Below, piece by piece: positions 1 to 60,438 of a DNA stretch of 60,438 nt (the stretch's first letter is position 1; each line of letters starts with the position of its first letter). The notes beneath the pieces were generated by a model. It was not told where the DNA came from and did no database searches. It saw only the letters and a list, made by a program, of their open reading frames with translations. The DNA lies in contig JBHENW010000200.1 of assembly GCA_046261875.1 (NCBI GenBank), positions 1 through 60,438 on the forward strand. The letters run 5' to 3'. This stretch comes from Thermoanaerobaculia bacterium (GTDB taxonomy: Bacteria > Acidobacteriota > Thermoanaerobaculia > UBA5066 > Gp7-AA6). The position numbers and the translations under genes were made by a program.

Positions 1-471
1 CCGGAGGGTCGCCATGGTGATCGCCGCCTCGGCCGCCTCCGCGCCTTTTCCCGTTCGGGAGCGCGCCTGCTCCATCGTGTCGCAAGTCAGCAAGCCGAAG
101 CCGATCGGTACGCCCGAGTCCGCGGAGAGCCGGGCCAGGGCTCCCGCGACCGCGTGCGCGAGGACCTCGTGGTGCGTCGTCTCCCCCCGCACGATGGCGC
201 CCAGGGCCACGATGGCATCGCTCCGTGCGGCGACCGCTCGGGCGGCCGCCGGGAGCTCGAAGGCGCCGGGGACCCGAAGGATGGTGACGTCGGAGGCGCG
301 AGCTCCATGGCGCTCCAGCGCCTCGAGGCAGGACCGGAGGAGTGCCTCGGTCACGGTCGGATTCCATCGGGCGCAGAGCACGGCGATGCGCAGACCTTTC
401 GCATGGAGATCACCCTCCCGCTCTTTTGGGGAGAAGGACGACGGAAGGCGGCGGAGGGAGCGGACCGTCAC
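1..471 (-). CDS. ribH: 6,7-dimethyl-8-ribityllumazine synthase (3' end runs off window)
   Basis: Not in the ORF track. Manual minus-strand translation gives KGLRIAVLCARWN...RVPGAFELP...VALGAIVRGETTHHE...GVPIGFGLLTCDTMEQA...GKGAEAAEAAITMA. The GTG start at 471 is approximate. Confidence 0.9.
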   Translation of the reverse strand, partial: MTVRSLRRLPSSFSPKEREGDLHAKGLRIAVLCARWNPTVTEALLRSCLEALERHGARASDVTILRVPGAFELPAAARAVAARSDAIVALGAIVRGETTHHEVLAHAVAGALARLSADSGVPIGFGLLTCDTMEQARSRTGKGAEAAEAAITMATLR

Positions 472-496
472 GGAAGGGCCTCTTCGAGAGGGGATG

Positions 497-502
497 ATTC
501 TA
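497..502 (-). promoter_or_regulatory. Candidate sigma70 -10 element (TAGAAT) upstream of ribH
   Basis: TAGAAT on the minus strand, overlapping the stop codon of the PfkB kinase gene, about 25 nt before the ribH start. Confidence 0.35.
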
Positions 503-1504
503 ACCCGGCGCCGCCGCGCTTTCCGCCAGCCGCGCGAGGCGGGACTGGGGCCCGAAGTTGCGCTCGTACCGCGCGATGAACTCCTGCATGGTGTAGCGGG
601 GCGGCTGCGGCCCCTGCGCTTCGAGGGCGATGACCGCGGCCGTGCTCCCCATCCGCCCGGCGACCTCCCACGGCAATCCCAGGCGGACGCCGCGGATGAG
701 CCCCGCGCGGAAGGCGTCCCCGACGCCCGTCGGCTCCACGGATGCGCTCTCGACCCTGGCGGCGGGGATGTCGTGGCGTTGCCGTCCGCTCTTCCCGGCC
801 ACCGAGATCGTGGAGCCGTCTGACCCGTGCGTGATGACCGTGACGGGGACGCGCTCCTCCACCTGCTCTCTCGTGAGCCCGGTCTTCTGCGTCAGGATGC
901 CCGACTCGTAGTCGTTCATGACGAGCGCCCAGGCGCCGCTCAGTCCCTCGAGCAGCTCTTCTCCCGAGAGGCGAGCGACCTGCTGGCTCGGATCGTAGAG
1001 GAACGGAATCTCCAGGCGCCGGCACTCCCCCGTGTACCGGCGCATCGCCTCCGGATCGTTTGGCGAGACCAGCACGATCGCCGGCCGCGCGCCGGCGACC
1101 GATTCGAGGGAGAGCTCGCGCGCGCGGGCCATCGCGCCGGTGTAGAAGGATGCGAGCTGGTTCTGGTCGCTGTCGGTGGAAACGAAGAAGGACGCGGTGA
1201 AGAGATCCTCCTGGAGCACGAGCCACCGCACGTCGACCCCTTCCGCCGCCAGCCGCTGCCGGTAGTCGGCGGCGTCCAGACCGGCGGTCGCGAAGATCAC
1301 GGGGGCGTCGCCGAGCACGGCGAGGCCGTAGGCGATGTTCGGCGCGCAGCCGCCCGGGACCCGGCGCATTTCGTCCACGAGGAAGGAGACCGACAGACGC
1401 GAGAGCCGGTCCGGGATCAGGTGCTCGACGAACCGTCCGGGGAACCGCATCAGGTAGTCGAAAGCCACCGAGCCGGTGACGACGACGGGACCGGCGCCCC
1501 TCAC
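500..1504 (-). CDS. PfkB-family carbohydrate/nucleoside kinase (adenosine kinase-like)
   Basis: GSVAFDYLM, PGGCAPNIAY and the C-terminal PfkB motif EPTGVGDAFRAG. GTGA overlap with the mtnP stop. Confidence 0.85.
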   Translation of the reverse strand: MRGAGPVVVTGSVAFDYLMRFPGRFVEHLIPDRLSRLSVSFLVDEMRRVPGGCAPNIAYGLAVLGDAPVIFATAGLDAADYRQRLAAEGVDVRWLVLQEDLFTASFFVSTDSDQNQLASFYTGAMARARELSLESVAGARPAIVLVSPNDPEAMRRYTGECRRLEIPFLYDPSQQVARLSGEELLEGLSGAWALVMNDYESGILTQKTGLTREQVEERVPVTVITHGSDGSTISVAGKSGRQRHDIPAARVESASVEPTGVGDAFRAGLIRGVRLGLPWEVAGRMGSTAAVIALEAQGPQPPRYTMQEFIARYERNFGPQSRLARLAESAAAPG

Positions 1505-2358
1505 AGGCGGCCGGAGAGAAGGGGTCCGAGTCGCCCCCGGGCGGCCTCGGGAATGGCCCCGCGCTCGGTGATCACCGCGAGACGGAGGGCGCCGCGGCAG
1601 CCGCAGGCGCGCGCCGGATCCACGCGGGCCACGGCCGACGCCAGTGTCCGGCGCGCCGCCTCCGCGTTGTCCCTCAGGACCCCGAGCAGCGCTTCGACCG
1701 AGACGGCCTCCGTCGCCTCCCGCCAGCAGTCGTAGTCGGTCACCAGGGCGAGCGTCGCATAGCAGATCTCCGCTTCGCGCGCCAGCTTCGCCTCGGTCAG
1801 GTTCGTCATGCCGATCACGTCCGCCCCCCAGGAGCGGTAGAGGCGGGATTCAGCGCGGGTCGAGAACTGCGGCCCCTCCATGCACACGTATGTTCCGCCG
1901 CCGTGAGTCGTCAGGCCCGCCTCGCGGGCCGAGGCCACGAGCGCGCCGGCGAGGGCCGGACAGACCGGATCGGCGAAAGCCACGTGGGCGGCGACGCCGT
2001 CTCCAAAGAAGGTGTCCGGACGATGCCGCGTGCGGTCGATGAACTGGTCGGGGACGACGGCATGGCGCGGCGCGTAGCGCTCCTGGAGGCTTCCGACCGC
2101 TGAGGCCGAGAGGACGGCGTCGCAGCCGAGCAACTTGAAGCCGAAGAGGTTCGCGCGGTAGTTGATCTCGCTCGGGAGCAGCCGGTGCCCTCTTCCGTGA
2201 CGGGCGAGGAAGGCGACGGGCCGCCCGCTCAGGCGTCCCGTGAAGAAGGCGTCCGAGGGCGCTCCGAAGGGGGTCTCCAGCCGCTCCTCCCGGAGGTCCT
2301 GCACGGACGCGAGGTCGTAGACGCCGCTGCCTCCGAGCAGCCCGATCCGGGCGCTCAA
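1501..2358 (-). CDS. mtnP: S-methyl-5'-thioadenosine phosphorylase
   Basis: RIGLLGGSG, FLARHGRGH, PDQFIDRT, EGPQFSTRAES, IGMT, LVTDYDCW. TTG start at 2358 overlaps the upstream stop (TTGA). Confidence 0.9.
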   Translation of the reverse strand: MSARIGLLGGSGVYDLASVQDLREERLETPFGAPSDAFFTGRLSGRPVAFLARHGRGHRLLPSEINYRANLFGFKLLGCDAVLSASAVGSLQERYAPRHAVVPDQFIDRTRHRPDTFFGDGVAAHVAFADPVCPALAGALVASAREAGLTTHGGGTYVCMEGPQFSTRAESRLYRSWGADVIGMTNLTEAKLAREAEICYATLALVTDYDCWREATEAVSVEALLGVLRDNAEAARRTLASAVARVDPARACGCRGALRLAVITERGAIPEAARGRLGPLLSGRL

Positions 2359-3320
2359 GCGCGGACCTCTTCGGCTGCGCGGCGGTACTCGGAAATGGCC
2401 TCGAGCACCCGGTGCGCGAGGACGAGCGCATCGCGCCCCTCGCCACCGGGCACGAGCGGTTCGGTGCGCTGCCGGACCGCCCGGAGGAAGTCCCCGAGCT
2501 GCCGGGCGAGCGGCTCCTCCGGGACGACGGAGACCTCGACGGGCACGATCTCCGGGCGGCCGCTCTCCTGGCTCAGACGGAAAGCGGCGAGAGAGCGCGC
2601 CTGCATGTCGACCGACACGTAGAGCGAGGCGGCGAAGACGCGGCACTTCCGCGCCCGGCCCATCGAGACGCGCGAGGCGGTCAGGTTGGCGACGCAGCCT
2701 CCCTCGAAAGCGATGCGCGCGTTGGCGATGTCCAGCCGGGGGGTGAGGACCGGAACGCCGGCGGCGCGGATTTCGACGACCGGCCGGCCCACCATCGTCC
2801 GAACGATCTGCAGGTCATGGATCATGAGGTCGAGGACCACGTCGATGTCCAGGCTCCGGGGAGAGAACGTCCCGAGGCGATGGACCTCGATGAACCGAGG
2901 CTCCGAAACGAGGCGGAGGGCCGCCTCGACGGCCGGGTTGTGACGCTCGATGTGTCCCACCTGCAGAATTCGCCGATGCCGGCGCGCCCTCGCCACGAGC
3001 TCGTCGGCCTCCGCGACGGTAACGGTGATGGGCTTCTCGACGAGGACGTCGATTCCGCGATCGAGGAAGAACCCCCCCACCTCGGCGTGGGAGGAGGTCG
3101 GCGTGGCGACGATGACCGCCTCCGCGGCGGCGGCGACCTCCTCGAGCGACCCGAGGACCGCGAGTCCCTGCGAGGCCGCGACTTCTTCGGCGCGGCCTTC
3201 GTGGTGGTCGTGCACGCCGACGAAGTCCACGCCGGAGGCCTGCGAGGCGACGCGCGCGTGCTGCCGGCCGAGGTGTCCCACGCCCACGACGGCGAGGCGG
3301 ATCCGCCGCGGACTCGTCAA
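2355..3320 (-). CDS. Gfo/Idh/MocA oxidoreductase (GnnA-like UDP-GlcNAc 3-dehydrogenase candidate)
   Basis: GVGHLG Rossmann motif, VLVEKP, QVGHIERHNP, DVVLDLMIHD. Lies directly downstream of lpxA. Confidence 0.8.
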   Translation of the reverse strand: MTSPRRIRLAVVGVGHLGRQHARVASQASGVDFVGVHDHHEGRAEEVAASQGLAVLGSLEEVAAAAEAVIVATPTSSHAEVGGFFLDRGIDVLVEKPITVTVAEADELVARARRHRRILQVGHIERHNPAVEAALRLVSEPRFIEVHRLGTFSPRSLDIDVVLDLMIHDLQIVRTMVGRPVVEIRAAGVPVLTPRLDIANARIAFEGGCVANLTASRVSMGRARKCRVFAASLYVSVDMQARSLAAFRLSQESGRPEIVPVEVSVVPEEPLARQLGDFLRAVRQRTEPLVPGGEGRDALVLAHRVLEAISEYRRAAEEVRA

Positions 3321-3348
3321 TGCACGAAGCGGAGAACCGGAGTGTCGG

Positions 3349-4131
3349 TCACTTGTGAAACCCGCGCTTGCTCTCCCGGATGAACCGCGCGAGCCGCTCG
3401 ACGTCCGGCTGCCCCGGCAGCTCCGACTCCATGCGTTCGAGCGCCTGGGTCGTGTTCAGCTTGGACTTGCGCAGGAAGCGGTAGGCCTTCTGCAACGCCT
3501 CGATCCGCTCGTCGGAGAAACCGTTGCGGCGCAGTCCCACGAGGTTCAGGCCGTAGGTCTTCGGCTCCGTCACGCCGTCGGTCCGGCAGAACGGCAGGAC
3601 GTCCTGGCGCCCCATCGTGTAGGCGCCGACGAAAGCGTGGTCGCCGATCCGGACGAACTGGTGGAACCCGGAGAACGCGCCGAGTACGACCCCGTCACCG
3701 ACCTCGATGTGCCCGGCGAGCGCCGCGTAATTCGCGAAGACGCATTGCGATCCGACTCGGCAGTCGTGGGCCACGTGGGTGTAGGCCATGAAGTAGTTGT
3801 CGTTCCCGACCGACGTCTCCGTCCGTCCGGTCGGAGTTCCGCGGTGCACCGTCGAGAACTCGCGGAAGACGTTGCGGTCGCCGACGAGGAGGCGCGTCGG
3901 CTCCCCGCGGTACCGCACGTCCTGCGGTTCCCCTCCGAGCAGCGCGTGATCGAAGATCCGGTTCTCCCGGCCGATCGTCGCGGGGCCCTGGAGAGACACG
4001 TGGGCGCCGATGCGCGTCCGCGCCCCGACGCGGACGTCGTCTCCCACGACCGCGTAGGGACCCACCTCGACGTCGTCCTCCAGCTCCGCCCGGGGCGAGA
4101 TGACGGCCGTGGCGTGGACCGTCGCGGTCAC
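3349..4131 (-). CDS. lpxA: Acyl-ACP--UDP-N-acetylglucosamine O-acyltransferase
   Basis: Hexapeptide repeats, [34 protein letters not shown] start at 4131 overlaps the fabZ stop. Confidence 0.95.
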
Positions 4132-4565
4132 GGCCGGTCCACCATCGTCGAAGTCAGGTCCGCTTCGGCGCACAGAGCCCCTTCCACCCTGGCGACCGCG
4201 TGGCATTTGCAGACGTTCATCTTCCAGTTCGTGATCTCCACCTCGAGCCGGAGCTGGTCTCCCGGCACGACCGGCTTGCGAAACCGGCAGCGGTCCACGC
4301 CGCTGAAGAGGAGCAGCTTCTTCTCCGGCTCGGCGATCGTCCCGATCAGCCCCACGGCGCCGACCTGCGCCATGGCTTCGAGAATGAGAACGCCGGGCAT
4401 CACGGGGTTCCCTGGAAAGTGCCCCTGGAAGAACTCTTCGTTGTAGGTCACGTTCTTGATCCCGACGATCCTCTTTCCGGGCTCCAGCTCGAGGATCCGG
4501 TCGACGAGCAGGAAGGGATACCGGTGCGGGAGAAGCTTGAGGATGTCCTGGATTCCGAGCTCCAT
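4128..4565 (-). CDS. fabZ: 3-hydroxyacyl-ACP dehydratase
   Basis: [35 protein letters not shown]. Confidence 0.97.
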
Positions 4566-4569
4566 CGCG

Positions 4570-5661
4570 TCAGTCCCCTTCCAGCTCCGCCAGCCGCTCT
4601 TCGAGGGCCTGCAGCCTCCGGATCATGTCGGGCAGGCGGCCCACGAGGGCCGCGCGGCGGAGAAACTCGCGATGCGGGATGGACGGCAGTCCGGAGACCG
4701 CCACCCCGGCCGGAACGTTAGCCGACACGCCGGTCCCCCCGGTCGCTGTCGACCCGTCGCCCATCTCGAGGTGATCCGCCACGCCCGCCTGTCCCGCGAG
4801 AGTTACCCGCCGGCCGAGGCGGACGGAACCCGCAATGCCGACTTGTCCGCAGAGGACCGAGTGCTCGCCGATCTGGACGTTGTGGCCGACCTGGACGAGG
4901 TTGTCGATCTTCGTTCCCCGGCCGACGGCGGTCTCGCCGAGCGTGGCGCGGTCCACGCACGCGTTGGCGCCGACCTCCACGTCGTCTTCCAGGCGCACGA
5001 TGCCCACCTGCGGGACCTTTCGGTGGACCGATCCGTCCCACACGTAGCCGAAGCCGTCGGAGCCGATGACCGCGCCGGGATGGAGGATGCAGCGGTCGCC
5101 GATACGGCACCGTTCGAGCACGACGGCGTGCGGGTAGAGGAGACAGTCCTCGCCGATCTCGACCTCCTCGCCGAGAAATACGCCCTCCCCGATCACCGTC
5201 CGCGCGCCCACGCGCGCCCGTGCGGAGATCGTCGCGCCGGCCGCGACCGACGCCGACCGCGCGACGGAGGCGGAGGAGGCCACGCGGGCCCCGCGCGCCA
5301 CGCCGGGCCGGGGCCGGCGCCGGGGCTGGAGCGCCTCGAGGCAGACGGCGAACGCCAGTTGCGGGTGCGGAGCGACGATGGCCGGTTTGCCGGAGGCATC
5401 CTCGGCTGCCCGGACGATCAGAGCGCCGGCGCCGCTCGCGGCGGCTTTCCCGGCCCGACGCGAGTCCGCGACCCAGGAAAGGTCGTCCGCGCGCGCCTGT
5501 TCGAGCGACTGGGCGCCCGATATCCGTTTGGCCGCATCACCTGACACCCGCCCGCCGACGAGCTCGGCGAGCTCTCCGAGCGTGCGGAAAGGCTTTCGGG
5601 GCGCGCGAGGCTCGGAAGGAGTCCGCGCGGCCGCAGCCGAAGAACGCTTTGCGGGCTTCAC
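4570..5661 (-). CDS. lpxD: UDP-3-O-(3-hydroxyacyl)glucosamine N-acyltransferase
   Basis: Hexapeptide repeats, GSDGFGY, KVPQVG, EVGANACVDRA, KIDNLVQVGHNV. Confidence 0.95.
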   Translation of the reverse strand: MKPAKRSSAAAARTPSEPRAPRKPFRTLGELAELVGGRVSGDAAKRISGAQSLEQARADDLSWVADSRRAGKAAASGAGALIVRAAEDASGKPAIVAPHPQLAFAVCLEALQPRRRPRPGVARGARVASSASVARSASVAAGATISARARVGARTVIGEGVFLGEEVEIGEDCLLYPHAVVLERCRIGDRCILHPGAVIGSDGFGYVWDGSVHRKVPQVGIVRLEDDVEVGANACVDRATLGETAVGRGTKIDNLVQVGHNVQIGEHSVLCGQVGIAGSVRLGRRVTLAGQAGVADHLEMGDGSTATGGTGVSANVPAGVAVSGLPSIPHREFLRRAALVGRLPDMIRRLQALEERLAELEGD

Positions 5662-5723
5662 GCGGACGGGATAGTAGCGTGGATGGCCCGTCGTCGGGCC
5701 GCGACCGTCCTGCGCGCCGGGGT

Positions 5724-6344
5724 CTAGTTCTTCCTCGGAGCGGGCGTTGGCGACGGACCGGCCGCGGCGGCCGGCGCCGGCTTGGCGGCCGGGGGCACGG
5801 CGACCGTCGTGTTGAACCGCCGCAGGACGTCGTCGGTCACGTCCGCCGCGTCGTCGGCAAAGACCAGCCCCGACTGGAACTTGTTGAAGATCATCGTGAA
5901 GCCCTTCTCGCGGCCGACCTGCGCGATGACGGGCATCACGCGCCGCTCGAGCTCGGCGAGCTCCTTCTTCTGCTGCTGGTCTAGCTCGCGGGTGGCGTCT
6001 TCGTTGAAGCGCTTGAAGGACATCGCCTTCTCCTGGTACTGCTTCTGGAGCGCTTCGCGCTTGTCGTCAGCCAGCGACTGACCCTGGTCCGCGAGCTTCT
6101 GTTCCATCTCGCGGATCTCTTTGGCGAGCTTCTCGGCCTCGCCCTTCTTCGAATCGTTGATCCTCTTGAGCCGAGCGAACGCTTCCTTTCCCAGCGCCGA
6201 GTCGCGCACGAGGCGCTCGACGTCGATGACGGCCACGCGCAGTCCGCCCGCGGCGGCGGCCGGAGCCGTCTTCGGCGGCGGGGTCTGGCCTTGCGCGGCC
6301 GCGGCGGCGAAGGCCGCCAGAAGCACGATCGCGATGCGTTTCAT
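5724..6344 (-). CDS. skp: OmpH/Skp periplasmic chaperone
   Basis: Signal peptide MKRIAIVLLAAFAAAAA, RVAVIDVERLV, coiled coil, GLVFADDAADVTDDVL. Lies between bamA and lpxD. Confidence 0.9.
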   Translation of the reverse strand: MKRIAIVLLAAFAAAAAQGQTPPPKTAPAAAAGGLRVAVIDVERLVRDSALGKEAFARLKRINDSKKGEAEKLAKEIREMEQKLADQGQSLADDKREALQKQYQEKAMSFKRFNEDATRELDQQQKKELAELERRVMPVIAQVGREKGFTMIFNKFQSGLVFADDAADVTDDVLRRFNTTVAVPPAAKPAPAAAAGPSPTPAPRKN

Positions 6345-54923: not shown

Positions 54924-55196
54924 ATGACGCGAAAGATCACGCGGCGCGCCGCCGGACGGCTGCTCGTTGCCGCTCCCGTCGCGCTCTCCCTCTCCGGCAC
55001 AGGAGCCGACGCACAGACGTCGCCGAAGCCCGCGCCGAAAGCGCCGACGCGGCCGAAGCCGGCGGCCCGTCAGCAGCGGGAGCTCGCCAAGGCAACCGAA
55101 GGCCTCGAGAAGGCCGCATCTGCGGTGCGGGCCATGAAGATCCCGATCGGGACCGAGCCGGCGTTCCTGTTTCGCCCATTCCGAAGCAAGGCATGA
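54924..55196 (+). CDS. Small twin-arginine-signal protein coupled to the amidase (GatC/AtzG-like partner candidate)
   Basis: KITRRAAG, hydrophobic h-region, ADA-Q cleavage site, C-terminal EPAFLFRP. ATGA overlap with the amidase. Confidence 0.68.
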   Translation: MTRKITRRAAGRLLVAAPVALSLSGTGADAQTSPKPAPKAPTRPKPAARQQRELAKATEGLEKAASAVRAMKIPIGTEPAFLFRPFRSKA

Positions 55197-56590
55197 CCCC
55201 CGAAGAAGCCCTCGCCCGCACGGTCGCCGATGTCGGGCCTGAGGTCCGCGCCGGCCGTCTCACGTCGGTGGCGCTGACGGAGGCTTCCCTCCGAAAGCTC
55301 GACACGGTCGGTCGAGAACTCGGCAGCGTTGCGTCCCTGTCCAGGGAGCAATCTCTCGAAGAGGCGCGGCGGGCCGACGGCGAGATAGCGGCCGGGAAGT
55401 ATCGAGGTCCCTTGCATGGGATTCCCTATGGCGCAAAAGACCTGCTGGCGACAGCGGGCTTCCCTACGACGTGGGGAGCCGGGCCCTTTAAGGGGCGAAT
55501 CCTCGAGCCGGACGCAACGGTGGTGAGGCGGTTGCGCGACGCCGGCGCCGTTCTCGTGGCCAAGCTCGCCATGATCGAGCTCGCGGGGGGGCTCGGTTAC
55601 AACATCGCCGCCGCTTCGGCGACGGGAGCTGCGAAGAACCCGTGGGATCGGAACCGCTGGACCTGCGGGTCCTCCTCCGGCTCGGGCGGGGCGACTGCAG
55701 CGGGTCTCGTCGGCTTTGCGATCGGTTCCGAAACCTGGGGATCGATCCTCTGTCCGTCGGCCTTCAACGGCGTGACCGGCCTGCGGCCCACCTACGGCCT
55801 CGTGCCGAGGACGGGAGGCATGGCGCTGTCCTGGACGATGGACAAGATCGGTCCCATGGCCCGATCCGCCGAGGACTGCGAGCTCGTGCTCGACGCCATC
55901 GCAGGCCACGACGCGGCCGACCCCGGATCGCTGCAGGAGACTCTACCGGCGCGGTCTGCCTCGGACGACCCCCGACGCTATCGAGTGGGAGCCTACCGGC
56001 CTTCCTTCGAGAAGTTCGGCAGCCAGGAGGTCGAGCGCGCTTTCGACGACGCGGTCAAGGTGTTCGACGGTCAGGGAATTCGTGTCAGCGACGTGAAGCT
56101 TCCCGATCTACCATTCGACCAGACCGCCATCCTCATCATCGTCGTCGAAGCCGCGGCGGCATTCGAGCCTCTCATCACCTCCGGACAGGTCCAGCGCCTG
56201 GCAGATCCCGGCGCCGACGTGAACTCCCGCGCGGCGCGCTCGATCCCCGGCGTGGACTACGTCCGGGCCATGCAGGCGCGCCGGATCTTGCAGCAGGAGA
56301 TGGCCAAGCTCTTCGAGACCTACGACCTCGTCATCTCCCCCACCGTTCCCATGCTGGCCACGAAGCTCGAGGAGAAACTCGAGGCCGCATTCGCCTACTC
56401 GGACCCCCTGGGATCAGGCGGCAACCTCGCGGGCTTGCCGGCGCTGTCGCTTCCCTGCGGGTTCTCGGCGAACGGTCTCCCGATCGGGATGCAGATCGTC
56501 GGCGCTCCGCTTAGTGAGAGGAAAGTTTTGGTGCTTGGGAAGTGGTTTCAGCGGGAGACGGAGTGGAATAGGCGGAGGCCGACCAGCTGA
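55193..56590 (+). CDS. Amidase-signature family enzyme
   Basis: GIPYGAKD, CGSSSGSG, GSETWGSILCPSAFNGVTGLRPT, GLPIGMQIVG. Confidence 0.92.
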   Translation: MTPEEALARTVADVGPEVRAGRLTSVALTEASLRKLDTVGRELGSVASLSREQSLEEARRADGEIAAGKYRGPLHGIPYGAKDLLATAGFPTTWGAGPFKGRILEPDATVVRRLRDAGAVLVAKLAMIELAGGLGYNIAAASATGAAKNPWDRNRWTCGSSSGSGGATAAGLVGFAIGSETWGSILCPSAFNGVTGLRPTYGLVPRTGGMALSWTMDKIGPMARSAEDCELVLDAIAGHDAADPGSLQETLPARSASDDPRRYRVGAYRPSFEKFGSQEVERAFDDAVKVFDGQGIRVSDVKLPDLPFDQTAILIIVVEAAAAFEPLITSGQVQRLADPGADVNSRAARSIPGVDYVRAMQARRILQQEMAKLFETYDLVISPTVPMLATKLEEKLEAAFAYSDPLGSGGNLAGLPALSLPCGFSANGLPIGMQIVGAPLSERKVLVLGKWFQRETEWNRRRPTS

Positions 56591-56670: not shown

Positions 56671-58086
56671 CTACGACTGAAATGGGTTTCGCCGTTGGAA
56701 CGTCTCTCGAAAGGCCCTAAGGCTGAATGTATCAAGGTCCTTCTGCTTCAAAGACTTTTCGAGAAGGGCAGCTGCAGCACGACCTTCTGGAGTCCTTCCT
56801 TCCTTTCGCAGGATAGGTAGGGCCCATCTTAACTCACTTGCCGCCTCCGATGGCAGATCAAGTAGAAGTGCGACCTCCGAGATCAAGACGGCGACATACG
56901 CGGCAAGCCAAAGCATATCCATAGAAACATACTGACCTTTAGCACGCCGAAACGCCCTCAAAGCTTCGGGGTGCATCGTCTGCACAGATAGGAATCCCCC
57001 GAGGATGGTCCAGAAGTCTGCGCTGCTGGCGGTTGGCTCGGTTCCCTCCAGCATCTGGGCCGCGGAGCGCAGAAACCCTGCTGCCTCCTCATGCCGGCTG
57101 AGTTCTACCAGGGAGTCGGCAAGTTGTGTAAGTACGCGGACCCGGAGTACCGGCCGCTCCTGCACGGAGTCATCGTTCAAAAGTGGCCTAAGTAAGTCAA
57201 CTGCTCGATCCGAGCGTCCTCTGATCTTCTCGGCCATGGCTTCGACGTGTTGGCACTTCGCAGCCCAAACCGGCATTGCGAACCGGTTGAGGATCGCGCG
57301 GACGTTCTGGGATTCTCTTACGACGTCGTCAAATTGATAGTTCAGGTACAAGATCGCCAGTCGAGAGAATGCGATCTTCGCGAGGCCAAAATCCGGATAT
57401 ACGGTATTTAGAAAGAATCCTTCCGCTTGGTTGAACCAATGGGAGGCATCGTCGAGCTTCCCCCGAAATCGCGCTGCCACTCCCGCCATCCAGGATAGTT
57501 CCGCTTTGAAGTACTCTCTCTCGTCAAACATGCCGGCGGGTTCTTTATAAAGTCCTTCCAAGCCTTCTAGTGCACGGCGCGTAGCTCGAGCGGGGGCGCG
57601 CTCCAAGTCTCTAGCTACAGTTGCGCAGTAATTGAAAAAGTTGCCAAGAGAGCCAAGGGGGAACGTCAGCCTTACGTCTGCCTGGTAGGCGTCGCCGGTT
57701 TGCTTGCGCAAAGAACGGAGAGTCTCTGGGTCCAGGCCGCAGGCCGTCCAGCCCATATCTGCCAATCCCCGGAGAAGCTGACGCATTTCCTCGTCGCCCG
57801 CGAGAAGTCCCGGAACCGCCACCCAGGTATAAACCTTATTTAAAACCGCGATATCTAGTCGCCTCTGCCGCCCAGGAAGAACAACATGCATCAATGCGTA
57901 CAGAACGTCCTTCAGGTCATCTCCAGCCACGGCGTGATAGCCGGTTCTCTCGGCAGTTACCTGGTGAAGAAGACGTTCTGCCTGTTGGATAGCCTCGGCA
58001 CGGCCGAGGCCCGTTCGAACGGCCCTGTCTCGGCTGACTGCTAGCCAACTTGGAATTAGCTCAATTAGCTCAGCATCAGTCGCCAA
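56671..58086 (-). CDS. TPR-like helical repeat protein (471 aa)
   Basis: A/L-rich helical repeats. Clear paralogy with 58615-59739 (FDEREY..ELSWMAG vs FDEKDY..ELARFAG). Confidence 0.8.
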   Translation of the reverse strand: MATDAELIELIPSWLAVSRDRAVRTGLGRAEAIQQAERLLHQVTAERTGYHAVAGDDLKDVLYALMHVVLPGRQRRLDIAVLNKVYTWVAVPGLLAGDEEMRQLLRGLADMGWTACGLDPETLRSLRKQTGDAYQADVRLTFPLGSLGNFFNYCATVARDLERAPARATRRALEGLEGLYKEPAGMFDEREYFKAELSWMAGVAARFRGKLDDASHWFNQAEGFFLNTVYPDFGLAKIAFSRLAILYLNYQFDDVVRESQNVRAILNRFAMPVWAAKCQHVEAMAEKIRGRSDRAVDLLRPLLNDDSVQERPVLRVRVLTQLADSLVELSRHEEAAGFLRSAAQMLEGTEPTASSADFWTILGGFLSVQTMHPEALRAFRRAKGQYVSMDMLWLAAYVAVLISEVALLLDLPSEAASELRWALPILRKEGRTPEGRAAAALLEKSLKQKDLDTFSLRAFRETFQRRNPFQS

Positions 58087-58432
58087 ATGGCTCCTCCACC
58101 TGAGGATCAGAGGATTGATCGGCTGATGGATCTCGCAGACTCCAAGTCTGCGTCAGGCGTGCTCGCCTCGCCGCTTTTCGCTGGAAGTTTGCAGAGAGAT
58201 TGTCGACGACTCGCGTCAACCAGGCTTTAGGGTTACCTTCCGCTCGTATTTTTCCAATGGCGAGCAGGAAAGCTTCCTGAACTATATCTCTAGCGTCCTC
58301 TTTGGAGAGACCGTGTTTCCACGTAGCCCTCCGAACAAGAGGCATGAAAAGGCGCGCGTGAAACTCTTCGAGCTGTTCTGAAGTGGCCGGTGGCCGGGGG
58401 TCCATGGGCGCCCGCCGAGCCTCCGAAGTCAC
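58076..58432 (-). CDS. Sigma-70 region-2-only (ECF-like) protein
   Basis: LVRRATWKHGLSKEDARDIVQEAF...NPKAWLTRVVDNLSANFQRK. The ORF ends about 25 aa later, with no room for region 4. Confidence 0.75.
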   Translation of the reverse strand: MTSEARRAPMDPRPPATSEQLEEFHARLFMPLVRRATWKHGLSKEDARDIVQEAFLLAIGKIRAEGNPKAWLTRVVDNLSANFQRKAARRARLTQTWSLRDPSADQSSDPQVEEPFGD

Positions 58433-58459
58433 TGAGATCCTACACCGCTCGCCACGGGC

Positions 58460-58486
58460 TTTTTTTTTCTCTCTCTCTCTCTCTCT
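58460..58486. repeat. Simple sequence repeat T9(CT)9
   Basis: Read directly from the sequence. A G8 run also lies at 58560-58567. Confidence 0.9.
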
Positions 58487-58586
58487 ACATTGTCACGAGC
58501 GACAGACCGCAGCACGTCAAGCCTTACCAGCGTCTCCGACACACCCGTAGCCGGCACTTGGGGGGGGCCAAGCGACGATTAACTCA

Positions 58587-58603
58587 GCCTCGCAAAGCGA
58601 GGC
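58587..58603 (-). terminator. Hairpin just downstream of the upstream TPR gene
   Basis: GCCTCGC-AAA-GCGAGGC, perfect 7-bp stem 12 nt past the stop at 58615. Weak U-tract. Confidence 0.4.
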
Positions 58604-58614
58604 CACCCAGCTAA

Positions 58615-59739
58615 TTAACGGTAGGAACTGGAGAGGCGTTCCCGCAGATCGCTGAGAGCTCTCGGATCAGCACGGCGCTGTCGCGCAGTCTCCTGAAGAA
58701 GTGCGACAGCAGCGGCGACCTCAGCGCCCAAGTCCGCCTTCGCTATCGCGGGCAAGGCTGCGAGGATCTCCCACTCCGCTTCCCGCGGCTTTCCCAGAGA
58801 TAAAAGGGTATCAGCGATAGCTAAACCGACGAAGGATTCAAAGTTGGCATGCCCGAGCTGGTGGTAGTCCGCCCGAGCAGCCCGATAAGCTTCCAGAGCC
58901 GCCTTTAGCCGTCCCTGCGCACGATAGGTCGACCCAATGCTCCACTTCAACTCTGCCACCGCAGTTGCTCTGCCATGCGCGGCGATGACCGGCACAGCCC
59001 TCTGATAGTAGGCTTGGGCCTGATCAAACTCGCCAAGACTTGCCGTGTAGTCACCCAGATGGACAAGAACCTGACCAAATAGGGATCTCTCAGGGGAGTC
59101 TTCCAAATCGGCGCAGAGTGTCAAGAACGCCTGAAAAGCGTCTTCGCCCCTTCCGGCAGCTCGTAGTGTCAGGGCGTGAACAAATCGCGTCTTGAAAGCT
59201 TCAGCAGACATTCCGAGCTTGGCAAAAGTGCGAAGAAGGTCCGGAATAAGGTCTAGGATTTCGTCATAGCGGTGCGTCTCGTACCTGACAGCAAGTCTCG
59301 CATACGCAACACTCGCTAAAAGAGGGCCGGGATTAATCGTATTCTGATACGCGGCGTCCGCGCGATCAAACCACCGTTCCGCCTTCTCGTACTCGCCTAT
59401 GGCGCGACACGCGGCGCCTGCGAACCGTGCGAGTTCGCCGCAAACATAATCCTTTTCGTCGAACAGGCCGAGAGGCTCCGATGAGCGCTGAACCCGGTTG
59501 AAGAGATCGGCCGCGGCTTCGCAGACCTCAGCGGGGGCTGTTTCCAGCAACTCCTTCAACAGATTGATCACCGCGAAGATGATCTCCGGCTGCCGGAGAT
59601 CGACAAAGATTGACTCGGGAGAGCGCCCTTCCCTAAGAGACTTCAGATATTCGCTCGCCGCCTCAATAGCGGAGGCGGCAGAAAGATTCTGTCGCCGTTG
59701 CCGGGGCGCGAACGGAAGGACCCGAGCTGCTTCAGGCAT
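58615..59739 (-). CDS. TPR-like helical repeat protein (374 aa)
   Basis: TPR-like units such as LGEFDQAQAYYQRA and QGRLKAALEAYRAA. Paralog of 56671-58086. Confidence 0.82.
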   Translation of the reverse strand: MPEAARVLPFAPRQRRQNLSAASAIEAASEYLKSLREGRSPESIFVDLRQPEIIFAVINLLKELLETAPAEVCEAAADLFNRVQRSSEPLGLFDEKDYVCGELARFAGAACRAIGEYEKAERWFDRADAAYQNTINPGPLLASVAYARLAVRYETHRYDEILDLIPDLLRTFAKLGMSAEAFKTRFVHALTLRAAGRGEDAFQAFLTLCADLEDSPERSLFGQVLVHLGDYTASLGEFDQAQAYYQRAVPVIAAHGRATAVAELKWSIGSTYRAQGRLKAALEAYRAARADYHQLGHANFESFVGLAIADTLLSLGKPREAEWEILAALPAIAKADLGAEVAAAVALLQETARQRRADPRALSDLRERLSSSYR

Positions 59740-60127
59740 CAGAACGTCGGAAGCTCAACAGCTCTAGGCTTCGCGAGAAATCTCCTGCCACATCACCCGG
59801 ATCCCGATCGAGAAGGCGCTTTAGCTTGTCGCTCGACTCTCTCGAACCGATCCCGACAAGGTACTTTTGGTACTCACGAGCGAATTGGCAACATGCAACG
59901 AGAAGGAAAGGTCTCAGGTCACGAGGGCTGCCAGCTCCAGGTCGTGAGCAGAACCGGGAAAACCAAACGTAGAGATCTTTTTCGAGTTCAACCGCCTCAG
60001 CCTCCTCGAGACCGTAATGGCTGACGAGGGCAATATGAATCAGGCCAAGCGTGTCTTGGAAGACTGTTTGGATTTCACCTTCAGTCTTCTCCTGCGGGGA
60101 TCCGACAGCCTCGTCAGAGATCTCCAT
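59732..60127 (-). CDS. Degenerate sigma-70 region-2-like protein
   Basis: ALVSHYGLEEAEAVELEKDLYVWF...LRPFLLVACCQFAREYQK aligns by eye with the 58076-58432 protein. AGGAAAGGA SD. 8-nt overlap with the TPR gene. Confidence 0.6.
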   Translation of the reverse strand: MEISDEAVGSPQEKTEGEIQTVFQDTLGLIHIALVSHYGLEEAEAVELEKDLYVWFSRFCSRPGAGSPRDLRPFLLVACCQFAREYQKYLVGIGSRESSDKLKRLLDRDPGDVAGDFSRSLELLSFRRSDA

Positions 60128-60438
60128 GCGTAGTCCTTTCTAGGAAGATTACGCAGAGAGTACACCTGTCCGGCAGGACAGTCAAACCGTTTGGCGAAAA
60201 AGACAATCGCCTCGCAAACCACTATTATTGAGTGGTTTAGATGCTAGTTAGGGATGCCGCCGACGAGACTCGTCAAGGCTGCTCCTTATTCGCCAATAGG
60301 CCCTGGCCCAATGCCGGGGCCGAAAACCGCGAAAAAACAGGTCTGCCGGCCCCGCGGCGCGGAAAAGCGCAGGCGGAATGCGGCATGCCCGAAACCTCCC
60401 CCCTCGCCACGCCGGTCGGAAAAACCCGGCTCAGCCTG

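Follow-up and report, generated by a model that had tools for sequence, protein, structure and literature searches.

A conserved four-gene module of Acidobacteriota that places a stand-alone sigma region 2 beside tetratricopeptide repeat proteins

Gene content and conservation of the module

The stretch of DNA considered here (60,438 nt of contig JBHENW010000200.1, assembly GCA_046261875.1, from a Thermoanaerobaculia bacterium; called the window at its full length) contains four open reading frames (ORFs) on its minus strand at positions 56671-60127, in the order small1, TPR1, sig2 and TPR2 (Table 1). Judged from their sequences and those of their relatives, the four genes are real, and together they make up a single conserved module of two transcription units, small1-TPR1 and sig2-TPR2. 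The gene of main interest is sig2, which evidently encodes a genuine stand-alone region 2 of a sigma factor of the extracytoplasmic function (ECF) type and is followed by a gene for a tetratricopeptide repeat (TPR) protein. An earlier reading of the bare letters, made before any search (the sequence-only reading), had seen one cassette occurring twice at this locus, with a sigma region 2 protein and a TPR protein in each copy. Half of this picture holds: both units consist of a small protein and a TPR protein, and the two TPR proteins are paralogous, whereas the two small proteins show no detectable homology to each other.

Related loci (designated by L numbers) came from three sources: a one-genome-per-species scan with a sig2 alignment, look-ups of single proteins, and a metagenome scan for a conserved block upstream of sig2, which is described below. 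Family hidden Markov models (HMMs), applied to stop-to-stop translations, yielded 43 sig2-family loci, and all those with a name belong to metagenome-assembled genomes (MAGs) of Acidobacteriota or Thermoanaerobaculia. Wherever enough flank is available, a TPR-family gene lies directly downstream of sig2 (37/37 loci), TPR1 lies upstream (31/32), and so does small1 (23/25). Two loci depart from this order: L009 has a solo sig2-TPR2 pair, and the small1 of L086 exists but contains a frameshift. A further solo pair occurs in L209. Throughout the 43 loci, sig2 and TPR2 are separate genes, with junctions that vary from overlaps of 11, 8, 4 or 35 nt to a 2-nt gap. The surroundings of the module are not constant: peptidase S13 and UPF0227 hydrolase genes flank it in the window, L001, L002 and L084, glycogen-debranching genes and a transposase in L086, Msr genes and rhodanese in L087, and VIT1 in L083. 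Because the flanking genes differ in this way, the four genes can be said to travel as a unit, which has been kept whole in at least three unrelated surroundings. The sequence-only reading had suggested that sig2 and the downstream TPR2 are dedicated partners, and had named conserved adjacency in other genomes as a check on this idea. The adjacency is kept in all 37 loci and, together with translational coupling and joint movement between contexts, speaks for such a partnership.

Both units are held together by overlapping reading frames. The end of small1 overlaps the beginning of TPR1 by 8 nt (the letters ATGCCTGA), an overlap that recurs with the same length in L002, L006, L008, L012, L017, L019, L084 and L085, and the sig2 stop overlaps the TTG start of TPR2 by 11 nt; the ORF coordinates and the junction sequence thus bear out the two overlaps that had been noticed at the outset. 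TPR2 has a Shine-Dalgarno sequence, GGAGGAG, 6 nt ahead of its TTG start, and its N-terminal homology to relatives begins about 10 residues past this start. For sig2, gene callers offer an alternative start, an ATG at 58405 that would give a protein of 109 aa. The GTG start is favoured because the N-terminus that it creates, MTSEARR, is shared with P0005, P0006, P0010 and P0013.

Variations on the module occur as well. The MAG MFD01916.bin.2.24 carries two full copies (L018 and L019), and in L008 a tandem second small1-TPR1 pair (the pairs lie at 1767-3300 and 4070-5639) precedes one sig2-TPR2 pair. In L003, L007, L010, L013, L020, L021 and other loci, which stem from long-read MFD MAGs, module genes are split into several ORFs; these breaks look like indel errors of the assembly and not like pseudogenes.

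Table 1. Positions of the module genes and of associated sequence elements in the window.
Feature	Position	Strand	Description
small1	59732-60127	-	131 aa, all-helical; orphan, highly conserved family; no Pfam/NCBIfam match, no detectable sigma homology
TPR1	58615-59739	-	374 aa, cytoplasmic TPR protein
sig2	58076-58432	-	118 aa from GTG; stand-alone ECF-type sigma region 2, without region 4
TPR2	56671-58086	-	471 aa from TTG; all-alpha TPR solenoid
Candidate housekeeping-type promoter of small1-TPR1	60157-60185	-	TTGACT, 17 nt, TACTCT
GC-rich hairpin	58587-58604	-	GGCCTCGC-TTT-GCGAGGC; directly 3' of the TPR1 stop
Invariant block	58489-58499	-	cTCGTGACAAT; candidate operator or -35-independent promoter for sig2-TPR2
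Simple repeat	58460-58486	-	(AG)9 A9; downstream of the invariant block, ahead of sig2

Protein families of the module

The assignment of sig2 is carried by several comparisons. The protein exceeds the cut-off of Pfam Sigma70_r2 (E=5e-9, with 36 bits vs. a cut-off of 24) and holds the motifs DIVQEAF and AWLxxxxxN. In NCBIfam, it matches SigJ-type and generic ECF models best, in every case over region 2 only, and the best match in the PDB is also a SigJ-type sigma, where the similarity includes the RRxxxxxxW segment that follows region 2.4. When a profile of 30 sig2 relatives is compared with 49 full-length ECF sigmas by hhalign, the probability of homology is 98%, and the alignment ends at the linker. 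A protein search returned 432 relatives; figures on length and domain content refer to the 120 of them that were listed, all of which have 96-146 aa and contain Sigma70_r2 only, and identity is at least 50% across species. The description of the second small protein as a sigma region 2 devoid of region 4, as given in the sequence-only reading, is therefore upheld by the Pfam and hhalign matches and by the uniform shortness of the relatives.

The residues that matter for a sigma region 2 are well preserved in the family. Region 2.2 has invariant D49, V51, Q52, A54 and F55 (DxVQ(E/D)AF), a stretch that corresponds to the canonical DLVQE motif and that is read here as the putative contact surface of sig2 for the β′ coiled-coil of RNA polymerase; in SigH of Mycobacterium tuberculosis, sigma-2 is the domain that touches this coiled-coil (PMC6411747). 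Within the specificity loop, N67 is nearly invariant, P68 is invariant or nearly so, and W71 is invariant. The sig2 sequence GNPKAWL stands opposite TNLKAWL of M. tuberculosis SigH, with N67 and W71 aligned to N77 and W81, the two SigH residues that hold the flipped base of the -10 element (PMC6411747). Region 2.4 is basic (R85, K86, R89 and R90), and past it follows a conserved segment, RRAxLxxRW, which aligns with the linker of SigJ (ECF41) and gives way to a variable acidic tail. As for names, JGI annotations give sigma24-family for some relatives of sig2 and hypothetical protein for some of small1, most relatives being unnamed, and none of the five NCBI/ENA clusters that were looked up has a name attached. 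Against PHROGs, sig2 matches a generic sigma family only (E=9e-4), with no specific similarity to gp55 of phage T4, and PADLOC models gave only chance-level TPR matches (E of 0.002 or worse), so that a phage or defence origin of the module proteins has no support from either collection.

The two TPR proteins are paralogs, as had been recognized from the letters: over their C-terminal 280 residues they share 28% identity (281 aa, E=7e-32). They belong to a family with 342 cluster representatives, which fall into two length classes of about 370 aa and 470-510 aa. TPR1 matches Pfam TPR_12, TPR_1 and TPR_8; TPR2 of the window matches Pfam TPR families weakly, and 29 of 30 family members match TPR_12. 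TPR2 starts with a lineage-specific helical region of about 180 aa, which bears the motif IPxWLAVT...GLSxxEA and precedes about seven TPRs. The AlphaFold2 (AF2) model of TPR2 (predicted local distance difference test, pLDDT, 88; predicted template modelling score, pTM, 0.87) is a single continuous alpha-solenoid, and Foldseek places it near APC subunits, LGN, OGT and Rap proteins. The TM-scores with Rap proteins reach 0.50-0.60 when normalised to the Rap targets, with APC, LGN and OGT scoring equally.

The absence of region 4 from sig2 raises the question of where such a domain could reside. A helix-turn-helix (HTH) or region 4 hidden in the N-termini of the TPR proteins, which the sequence-only reading had flagged as a point to check, was looked for by profile, Pfam and fold comparison, and was found by none of them. 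The N-terminal 185 residues of TPR2, as a 30-sequence profile, reach 0.4% with ECF sigmas in hhalign; in the PDB, the TPR2 profile matches TPR proteins of a generic kind only, and these via its C-terminal half alone; and the AF2 model with its Foldseek neighbours gave no indication of such a domain either. In a Pfam tally of 30 TPR2-type members, which matched 49 families of which the 25 most frequent were listed, only TPR-type families and no HTH are among these most frequent ones, and DUF6596 is not among them. Fusions between TPR proteins and sigmas do not occur among the 150 best TPR2 relatives, none of which is longer than 514 aa. A neighbouring gene for a sigma-4-only partner was rejected as well: an HMM of sigma-4 built from 49 ECF sigmas found 0 matches in the window and all family loci (365 kb), as compared to 61 segments in control loci that served as the positive control. 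Likewise, neither Pfam nor NCBIfam detects an ASD or zf-HC2 family, the feature of class I anti-sigmas, in TPR1, TPR2 or small1. A gene for a secreted peptide was not evident by eye, no signal-peptide tool having been run.

The first small protein, small1, had been taken for a degenerate sigma region 2 and, on this basis, for a possible decoy. Neither idea is sustained. BLASTP finds no match between small1 and sig2; hhalign gives 0.1% for small1 vs. the sig2 family (0.75% when the divergent members from L083, L010, L086 and L087 are added) and 0.1-0.3% vs. generic ECF sigmas; and Pfam, NCBIfam, PADLOC and PHROGs contain no match. The AF2 model of small1 (pLDDT 82, pTM 0.75) comprises helices at 11-37, 42-60, 68-93, 100-107 and 110-130, and Foldseek retrieves nothing for it at E<=0.001 in the PDB or BFVD, with no sigma among the top PDB matches. 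There is a loose resemblance to regions 2.1-2.2 in the motif EAxELEKDLYxWFxRFxxRPG and in the lengths of the helices, and the predicted three-helix topology is compatible with sigma-2 without being diagnostic. A very remote homology is therefore possible, but homology to sigma-2 is not demonstrable, and with it a sigma-2 decoy loses its footing. Far from being in decay, small1 is the most conserved gene of the module, ahead of sig2. Its relatives number more than 650, with lengths of 130-136 aa, and identity to small1 is 65-93% among the best 120 that were listed. The N-terminus is acidic and, by eye, unlike a signal peptide.

A close subfamily of small1 has H31, H37, C60, C79 and C80 as invariant or nearly invariant residues. 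Divergent members keep only C80 together with the WFxR...RPG core. A general role of small1 as a Cys/His-based metal or redox sensor was discarded, given that H31, H37, C60 and C79 are conserved in the close subfamily only; a metal or redox site specific to this subfamily is possible.

Promoter anatomy and possible modes of action

Every sig2 gene is preceded, at a distance of 20-50 nt, by the sequence cTCGYGACAAT, after which ATGTAAGTAGG follows (the block is also written TCGYGACAAT(ATGTA)). In an alignment of 30 distinct loci that is anchored on this block, the core contains 1.5-1.9 bits per position and the next ten positions contain 0.5-1.4 bits. The 44 positions upstream of the block (-45 to -2) contain about 0 bits across the same loci, i.e., a conserved -35 element is not present. 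Moreover, intrinsic terminators of TPR1, consisting of a stem and a T-run, end 10-15 nt upstream of the block in L011, L013, L020, L089 and L147, which leaves no room for a conventional promoter in these loci. The hairpin of the window takes the place of the clear intrinsic terminators of its orthologues, its T-run being weak. By comparison, orthologous small1-TPR1 loci show a classical TTGnnn-17-TAnnnT promoter upstream of small1. This combination, an ordinary promoter for small1-TPR1 vs. an invariant block without -35 information, often abutted by terminators, for sig2, is new.

The 10-mer of the block occurs once in the 60-kb window (58489-58498) and a single time in each family locus, in all cases ahead of sig2. 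Its variants are TCATGACAAT in L001 and L085, and a GACAGT ending in L009 (at the sig2 site of this locus), L087 and L209. L009 also contains a second copy at 5781-5790, in opposite orientation to the first and in the correct one for a divergent gene, about 65 nt upstream of which it lies and which encodes an RHS-type secreted protein of 1799 aa; this copy marks the sole candidate regulon member that was found. The gene concerned (319-5718, minus strand) diverges from sig2-TPR2 and encodes RHS/YD repeats and a C-terminal GHSAG hydrolase-like domain. When metagenomes were scanned for the 16-mer CTCGYGACAATATGTA, 80 matches were obtained, 13 of which are sig2 upstream regions, and in all 13 of these module-bearing matches sig2 starts 36-60 nt downstream of the block. 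The other 67 were rejected as regulon sites; they look like chance occurrences of low G+C, inside ORFs, or in unrelated taxa.

Some features of the leader and of the small1 upstream region vary between genomes. In the window, the (AG)9A9 repeat takes the place of the ATGTAAGTAGG that follows the block in orthologues; the tract is possibly slippage-prone and could alter promoter or leader function in this genome. The sig2 leader has no Rfam match. Hairpins located between block and start codon pair with 4-5 of the 5 Shine-Dalgarno bases in L002, L007, L011, L015, L016 and L019, which suggests translational control of sig2; for the leader hairpins, among whose loci L013 was also noted, the z-scores are modest (down to -3.5), and the stems differ between genomes. 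Inverted repeats are found just upstream of the -35 element of small1 (about 60190-60250 in the window), again with a sequence that varies by genome (e.g., CCTGAGTTGCGATTTTGCGACTTAGGG in L002), and they could represent an operator or the terminator of the upstream peptidase gene.

The interpretation preferred here, tentatively and with somewhat less than even confidence, is that sig2 acts as a minimal ECF-derived sigma, which would be independent of a -35 element, autoregulated and gated by TPR2, and which would receive its input from the pair small1-TPR1. Sig2 would dock on the β′ coiled-coil of RNA polymerase via its intact region 2.2 and read the -10-like sequence TCGYGACAAT without any -35 contact, and it might thereby direct transcription of its own operon and of a small regulon. 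Positive autoregulation is usual for ECF sigmas. TPR2 is envisaged to bind sig2 one-to-one and could gate it in two ways, either by a sequestration that resembles the action of anti-sigmas or by taking over the contacts for which region 4 and the linker are normally responsible; whether anti-sigma, co-activator or ligand sensor is the fitting term for TPR2 is at present a guess. The unit small1-TPR1 may constitute the input stage, expressed from its ordinary -35/-10 promoter, a position upstream of sig2-TPR2 that is suggested by the paralogy of TPR1 and TPR2 and by the housekeeping-type promoter of this unit. Since TPR1 shares its C-terminal 280 residues with TPR2, it could swap partners with TPR2 or sig2 once small1 responds to a signal.

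Several points weigh against this interpretation. The tail of sig2 past region 2.4 amounts to only 25-35 residues, and TPR2 shows generic TPR similarity only. The evidence for a regulon is a single extra site, to which the metagenome scan added no further convincing ones, and the block may instead be an unusual promoter for sigma-A, or an operator. Finally, the role given to small1 is drawn wholly from gene order. Gene and domain content, the conservation of the module and its promoter anatomy are observations; binding to RNA polymerase, recognition of the block by sig2, the direction in which TPR2 acts and the part played by small1-TPR1 are inferred.

A bolder version, which must be called improbable, would make sig2 the first cellular and chromosomal region-2-only sigma, operating in the manner of T4 gp55 at -35-independent TCGYGACAAT promoters, with TPR2 as a polymerase-bound co-factor that replaces region 4 and the linker, and with small1-TPR1 as a second, signal-sensing layer; if true, these parts would represent a new architecture for sigma-dependent promoter recognition and control. 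T4 gp55 is a region-2-like minimal sigma that works at promoters with a -10-type element only, and the role of region 4 on the polymerase is taken over by gp33. The domain content of the module and its -35-less block fit a region-2-only sigma at a -10-only promoter of this type, if sig2 recognizes the block as proposed. In contrast to gp55, the present system is cellular, chromosomal and ECF-derived and has a TPR partner, and the best matches of sig2 are cellular ECF sigmas.

Rather unlikely is the alternative that sig2 is not a promoter-specificity subunit but an adaptor or competitor that docks on the β′ coiled-coil of the polymerase, where it blocks other sigmas or tethers TPR2 to the enzyme, while the block serves another factor or sigma-A. 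The invariance of region 2.2 would suit such a protein, as would the detection of a single non-self copy of the block and the lack of both region 4 and a full linker, which is essential in SigH (PMC6411747). Pure docking, however, would not need N67 and W71 of the -10 specificity loop or the basic region 2.4, all of which are conserved, and the block has no -35 partner and makes a poor -10 element for sigma-A. Even as a docking adaptor or a decoy, sig2 would represent a region-2-based regulator of a new kind.

The conserved DNA- and core-contact residues also bear on a further alternative, in which sig2 is a sigma mimic or anti-anti-sigma like PhyR, and the TPR proteins are anti-sigmas of a distant full-length ECF sigma that are titrated by sig2 or small1. 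Sigma mimics tend to lose precisely these residues, but sig2 retains them; moreover, no full-length ECF sigma or sigma-4 is encoded near any module (0 vs. 61 control matches), and no receiver or other switch domain is present. This makes mimicry quite an unlikely role for sig2, even though it would account for two paralogous TPR proteins that each have a small helical partner. SpoIIE/PP2C and STAS proteins are typical parts of partner-switching cascades, and genes of both kinds occur near modules: a SpoIIE/PP2C phosphatase gene directly after TPR2 in L084 (6685-7968) and a STAS-domain gene about 5 kb downstream in L086 (14583-14918). Neither of them is a conserved neighbour of the module. Partner switching by mimicry is established for PhyR-NepR (PMC4551977). 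The PhyR-NepR-EcfG system resembles the module in that a sigma-like domain is used for protein-protein interaction within a multi-protein switch, and it differs in its receiver domain and NepR-like peptide, both of which are missing here, as well as in the canonical region-2 residues that sig2 keeps.

The sequence-only reading had itself named, among its precedents, a split sigma of the SigO-RsoA (YvrI-YvrHa) type of Bacillus subtilis, in which sigma-2 and sigma-4 are situated on separate polypeptides (a precedent cited in PMC7826278). The likeness is that a small region-2-only protein is encoded beside an obligate partner, and the family-specific N-terminal region of 180 aa in TPR2 would offer a place for a reader of the -35 element, unless a distant sigma-4-only protein takes this part. 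However, the partner in SigO-RsoA carries region 4 and reads the -35 element, whereas the partner here is a TPR solenoid, continuous in its AF2 model, with no detectable region 4 or HTH; its N-terminus shows no relation to ECF sigmas, the most frequent Pfam families among the 30 members examined are of the TPR type only, no sigma-4 ORF exists in the module or in the 365 kb of family loci, and no -35 element is conserved. A two-subunit sigma of this kind is accordingly very improbable and finds no support. Last, a sequencing artefact or the decay of an ECF sigma gene broken by a frameshift next to unrelated TPR genes, a concern voiced from the start and nourished by the frameshifts in many related nanopore MAG loci, is refuted by the uniform 96-146 aa of the listed relatives, their identity of at least 50% across species, the strict gene order and the intact frames of the window.

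Among other known systems, ECF41 and ECF42 sigmas (SigJ; ECF42 of S. venezuelae) are of interest, as the best PDB and NCBIfam matches of sig2 are of the SigJ type, including the RRxxxxxxW past region 2.4. In ECF41/ECF42, a regulatory extension, which in ECF42 consists of TPRs, acts on the sigma through the linker region (PMC8999054). These sigmas retain region 4 and have their extension in cis, whereas the module lacks region 4 and encodes the TPRs on a separate polypeptide. Rap proteins and other RRNPP regulators share with TPR2 the succession of an N-terminal helical region and about seven TPRs, a similarity that is generic; here, an HTH is missing, and a sigma domain takes the place of the response regulator as the partner. 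Sig2 has region 2 in common with ECF (group 4) sigmas but is without a region 4 on the same polypeptide, and the gene downstream of it encodes neither the anti-sigma domain nor the HxxxCxxC zinc motif of class I anti-sigmas (ASD/ZAS). The closest functional precedents are T4 gp55-gp33, SigO-RsoA and ECF41/ECF42, and the module differs from each of them.

To our knowledge, bacterial sigmas besides sigma-54 are understood to use at least two DNA-reading domains, with T4 gp55 and SigO-RsoA as the known exceptions. The searchable literature yielded no account of cellular sigmas that have only region 2 and a TPR partner, in agreement with the initial impression that the system had not been described. 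Censuses of ECF sigmas required both domains (PMC7826278), and the family has been invisible to them for this reason. The module suggests a manner of steering RNA polymerase that has not been described so far. Should the preferred interpretation be true, a widespread cellular region-2-only family with a constant TPR partner and a -35-less promoter would widen the range of promoter recognition and provide a compact, orthogonal two-protein transcription switch.

Base composition and neighbouring genes

The four module genes have a G+C content of 0.57, compared to 0.68 in the rest of the window. A drop of 9-11 points relative to the flanks is seen in every genome checked (the window, L002, L004, L006, L012, L014, L017, L019 and L083), and the G+C content at third codon positions of the module is 0.55-0.60 vs. 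0.81 in the neighbouring amidase gene. As the anomaly is also present in syntenic orthologues, the module is not a recent island of this genome alone; control by rare codons or repeated transfer are possible causes.

Convergent with TPR2, at 54924-56590 on the plus strand, lies a pair of ORFs. The first, of 90 aa and with a twin-arginine-like signal (MTRKITRRAAGRLL...), runs 4 nt into the second, of 465 aa. The latter corresponds to a Pfam Amidase gene in the closest metagenome contig. This contig also contains the pair, which is absent from L001 and L002; in these two loci, a UPF0227 hydrolase gene directly follows TPR2.

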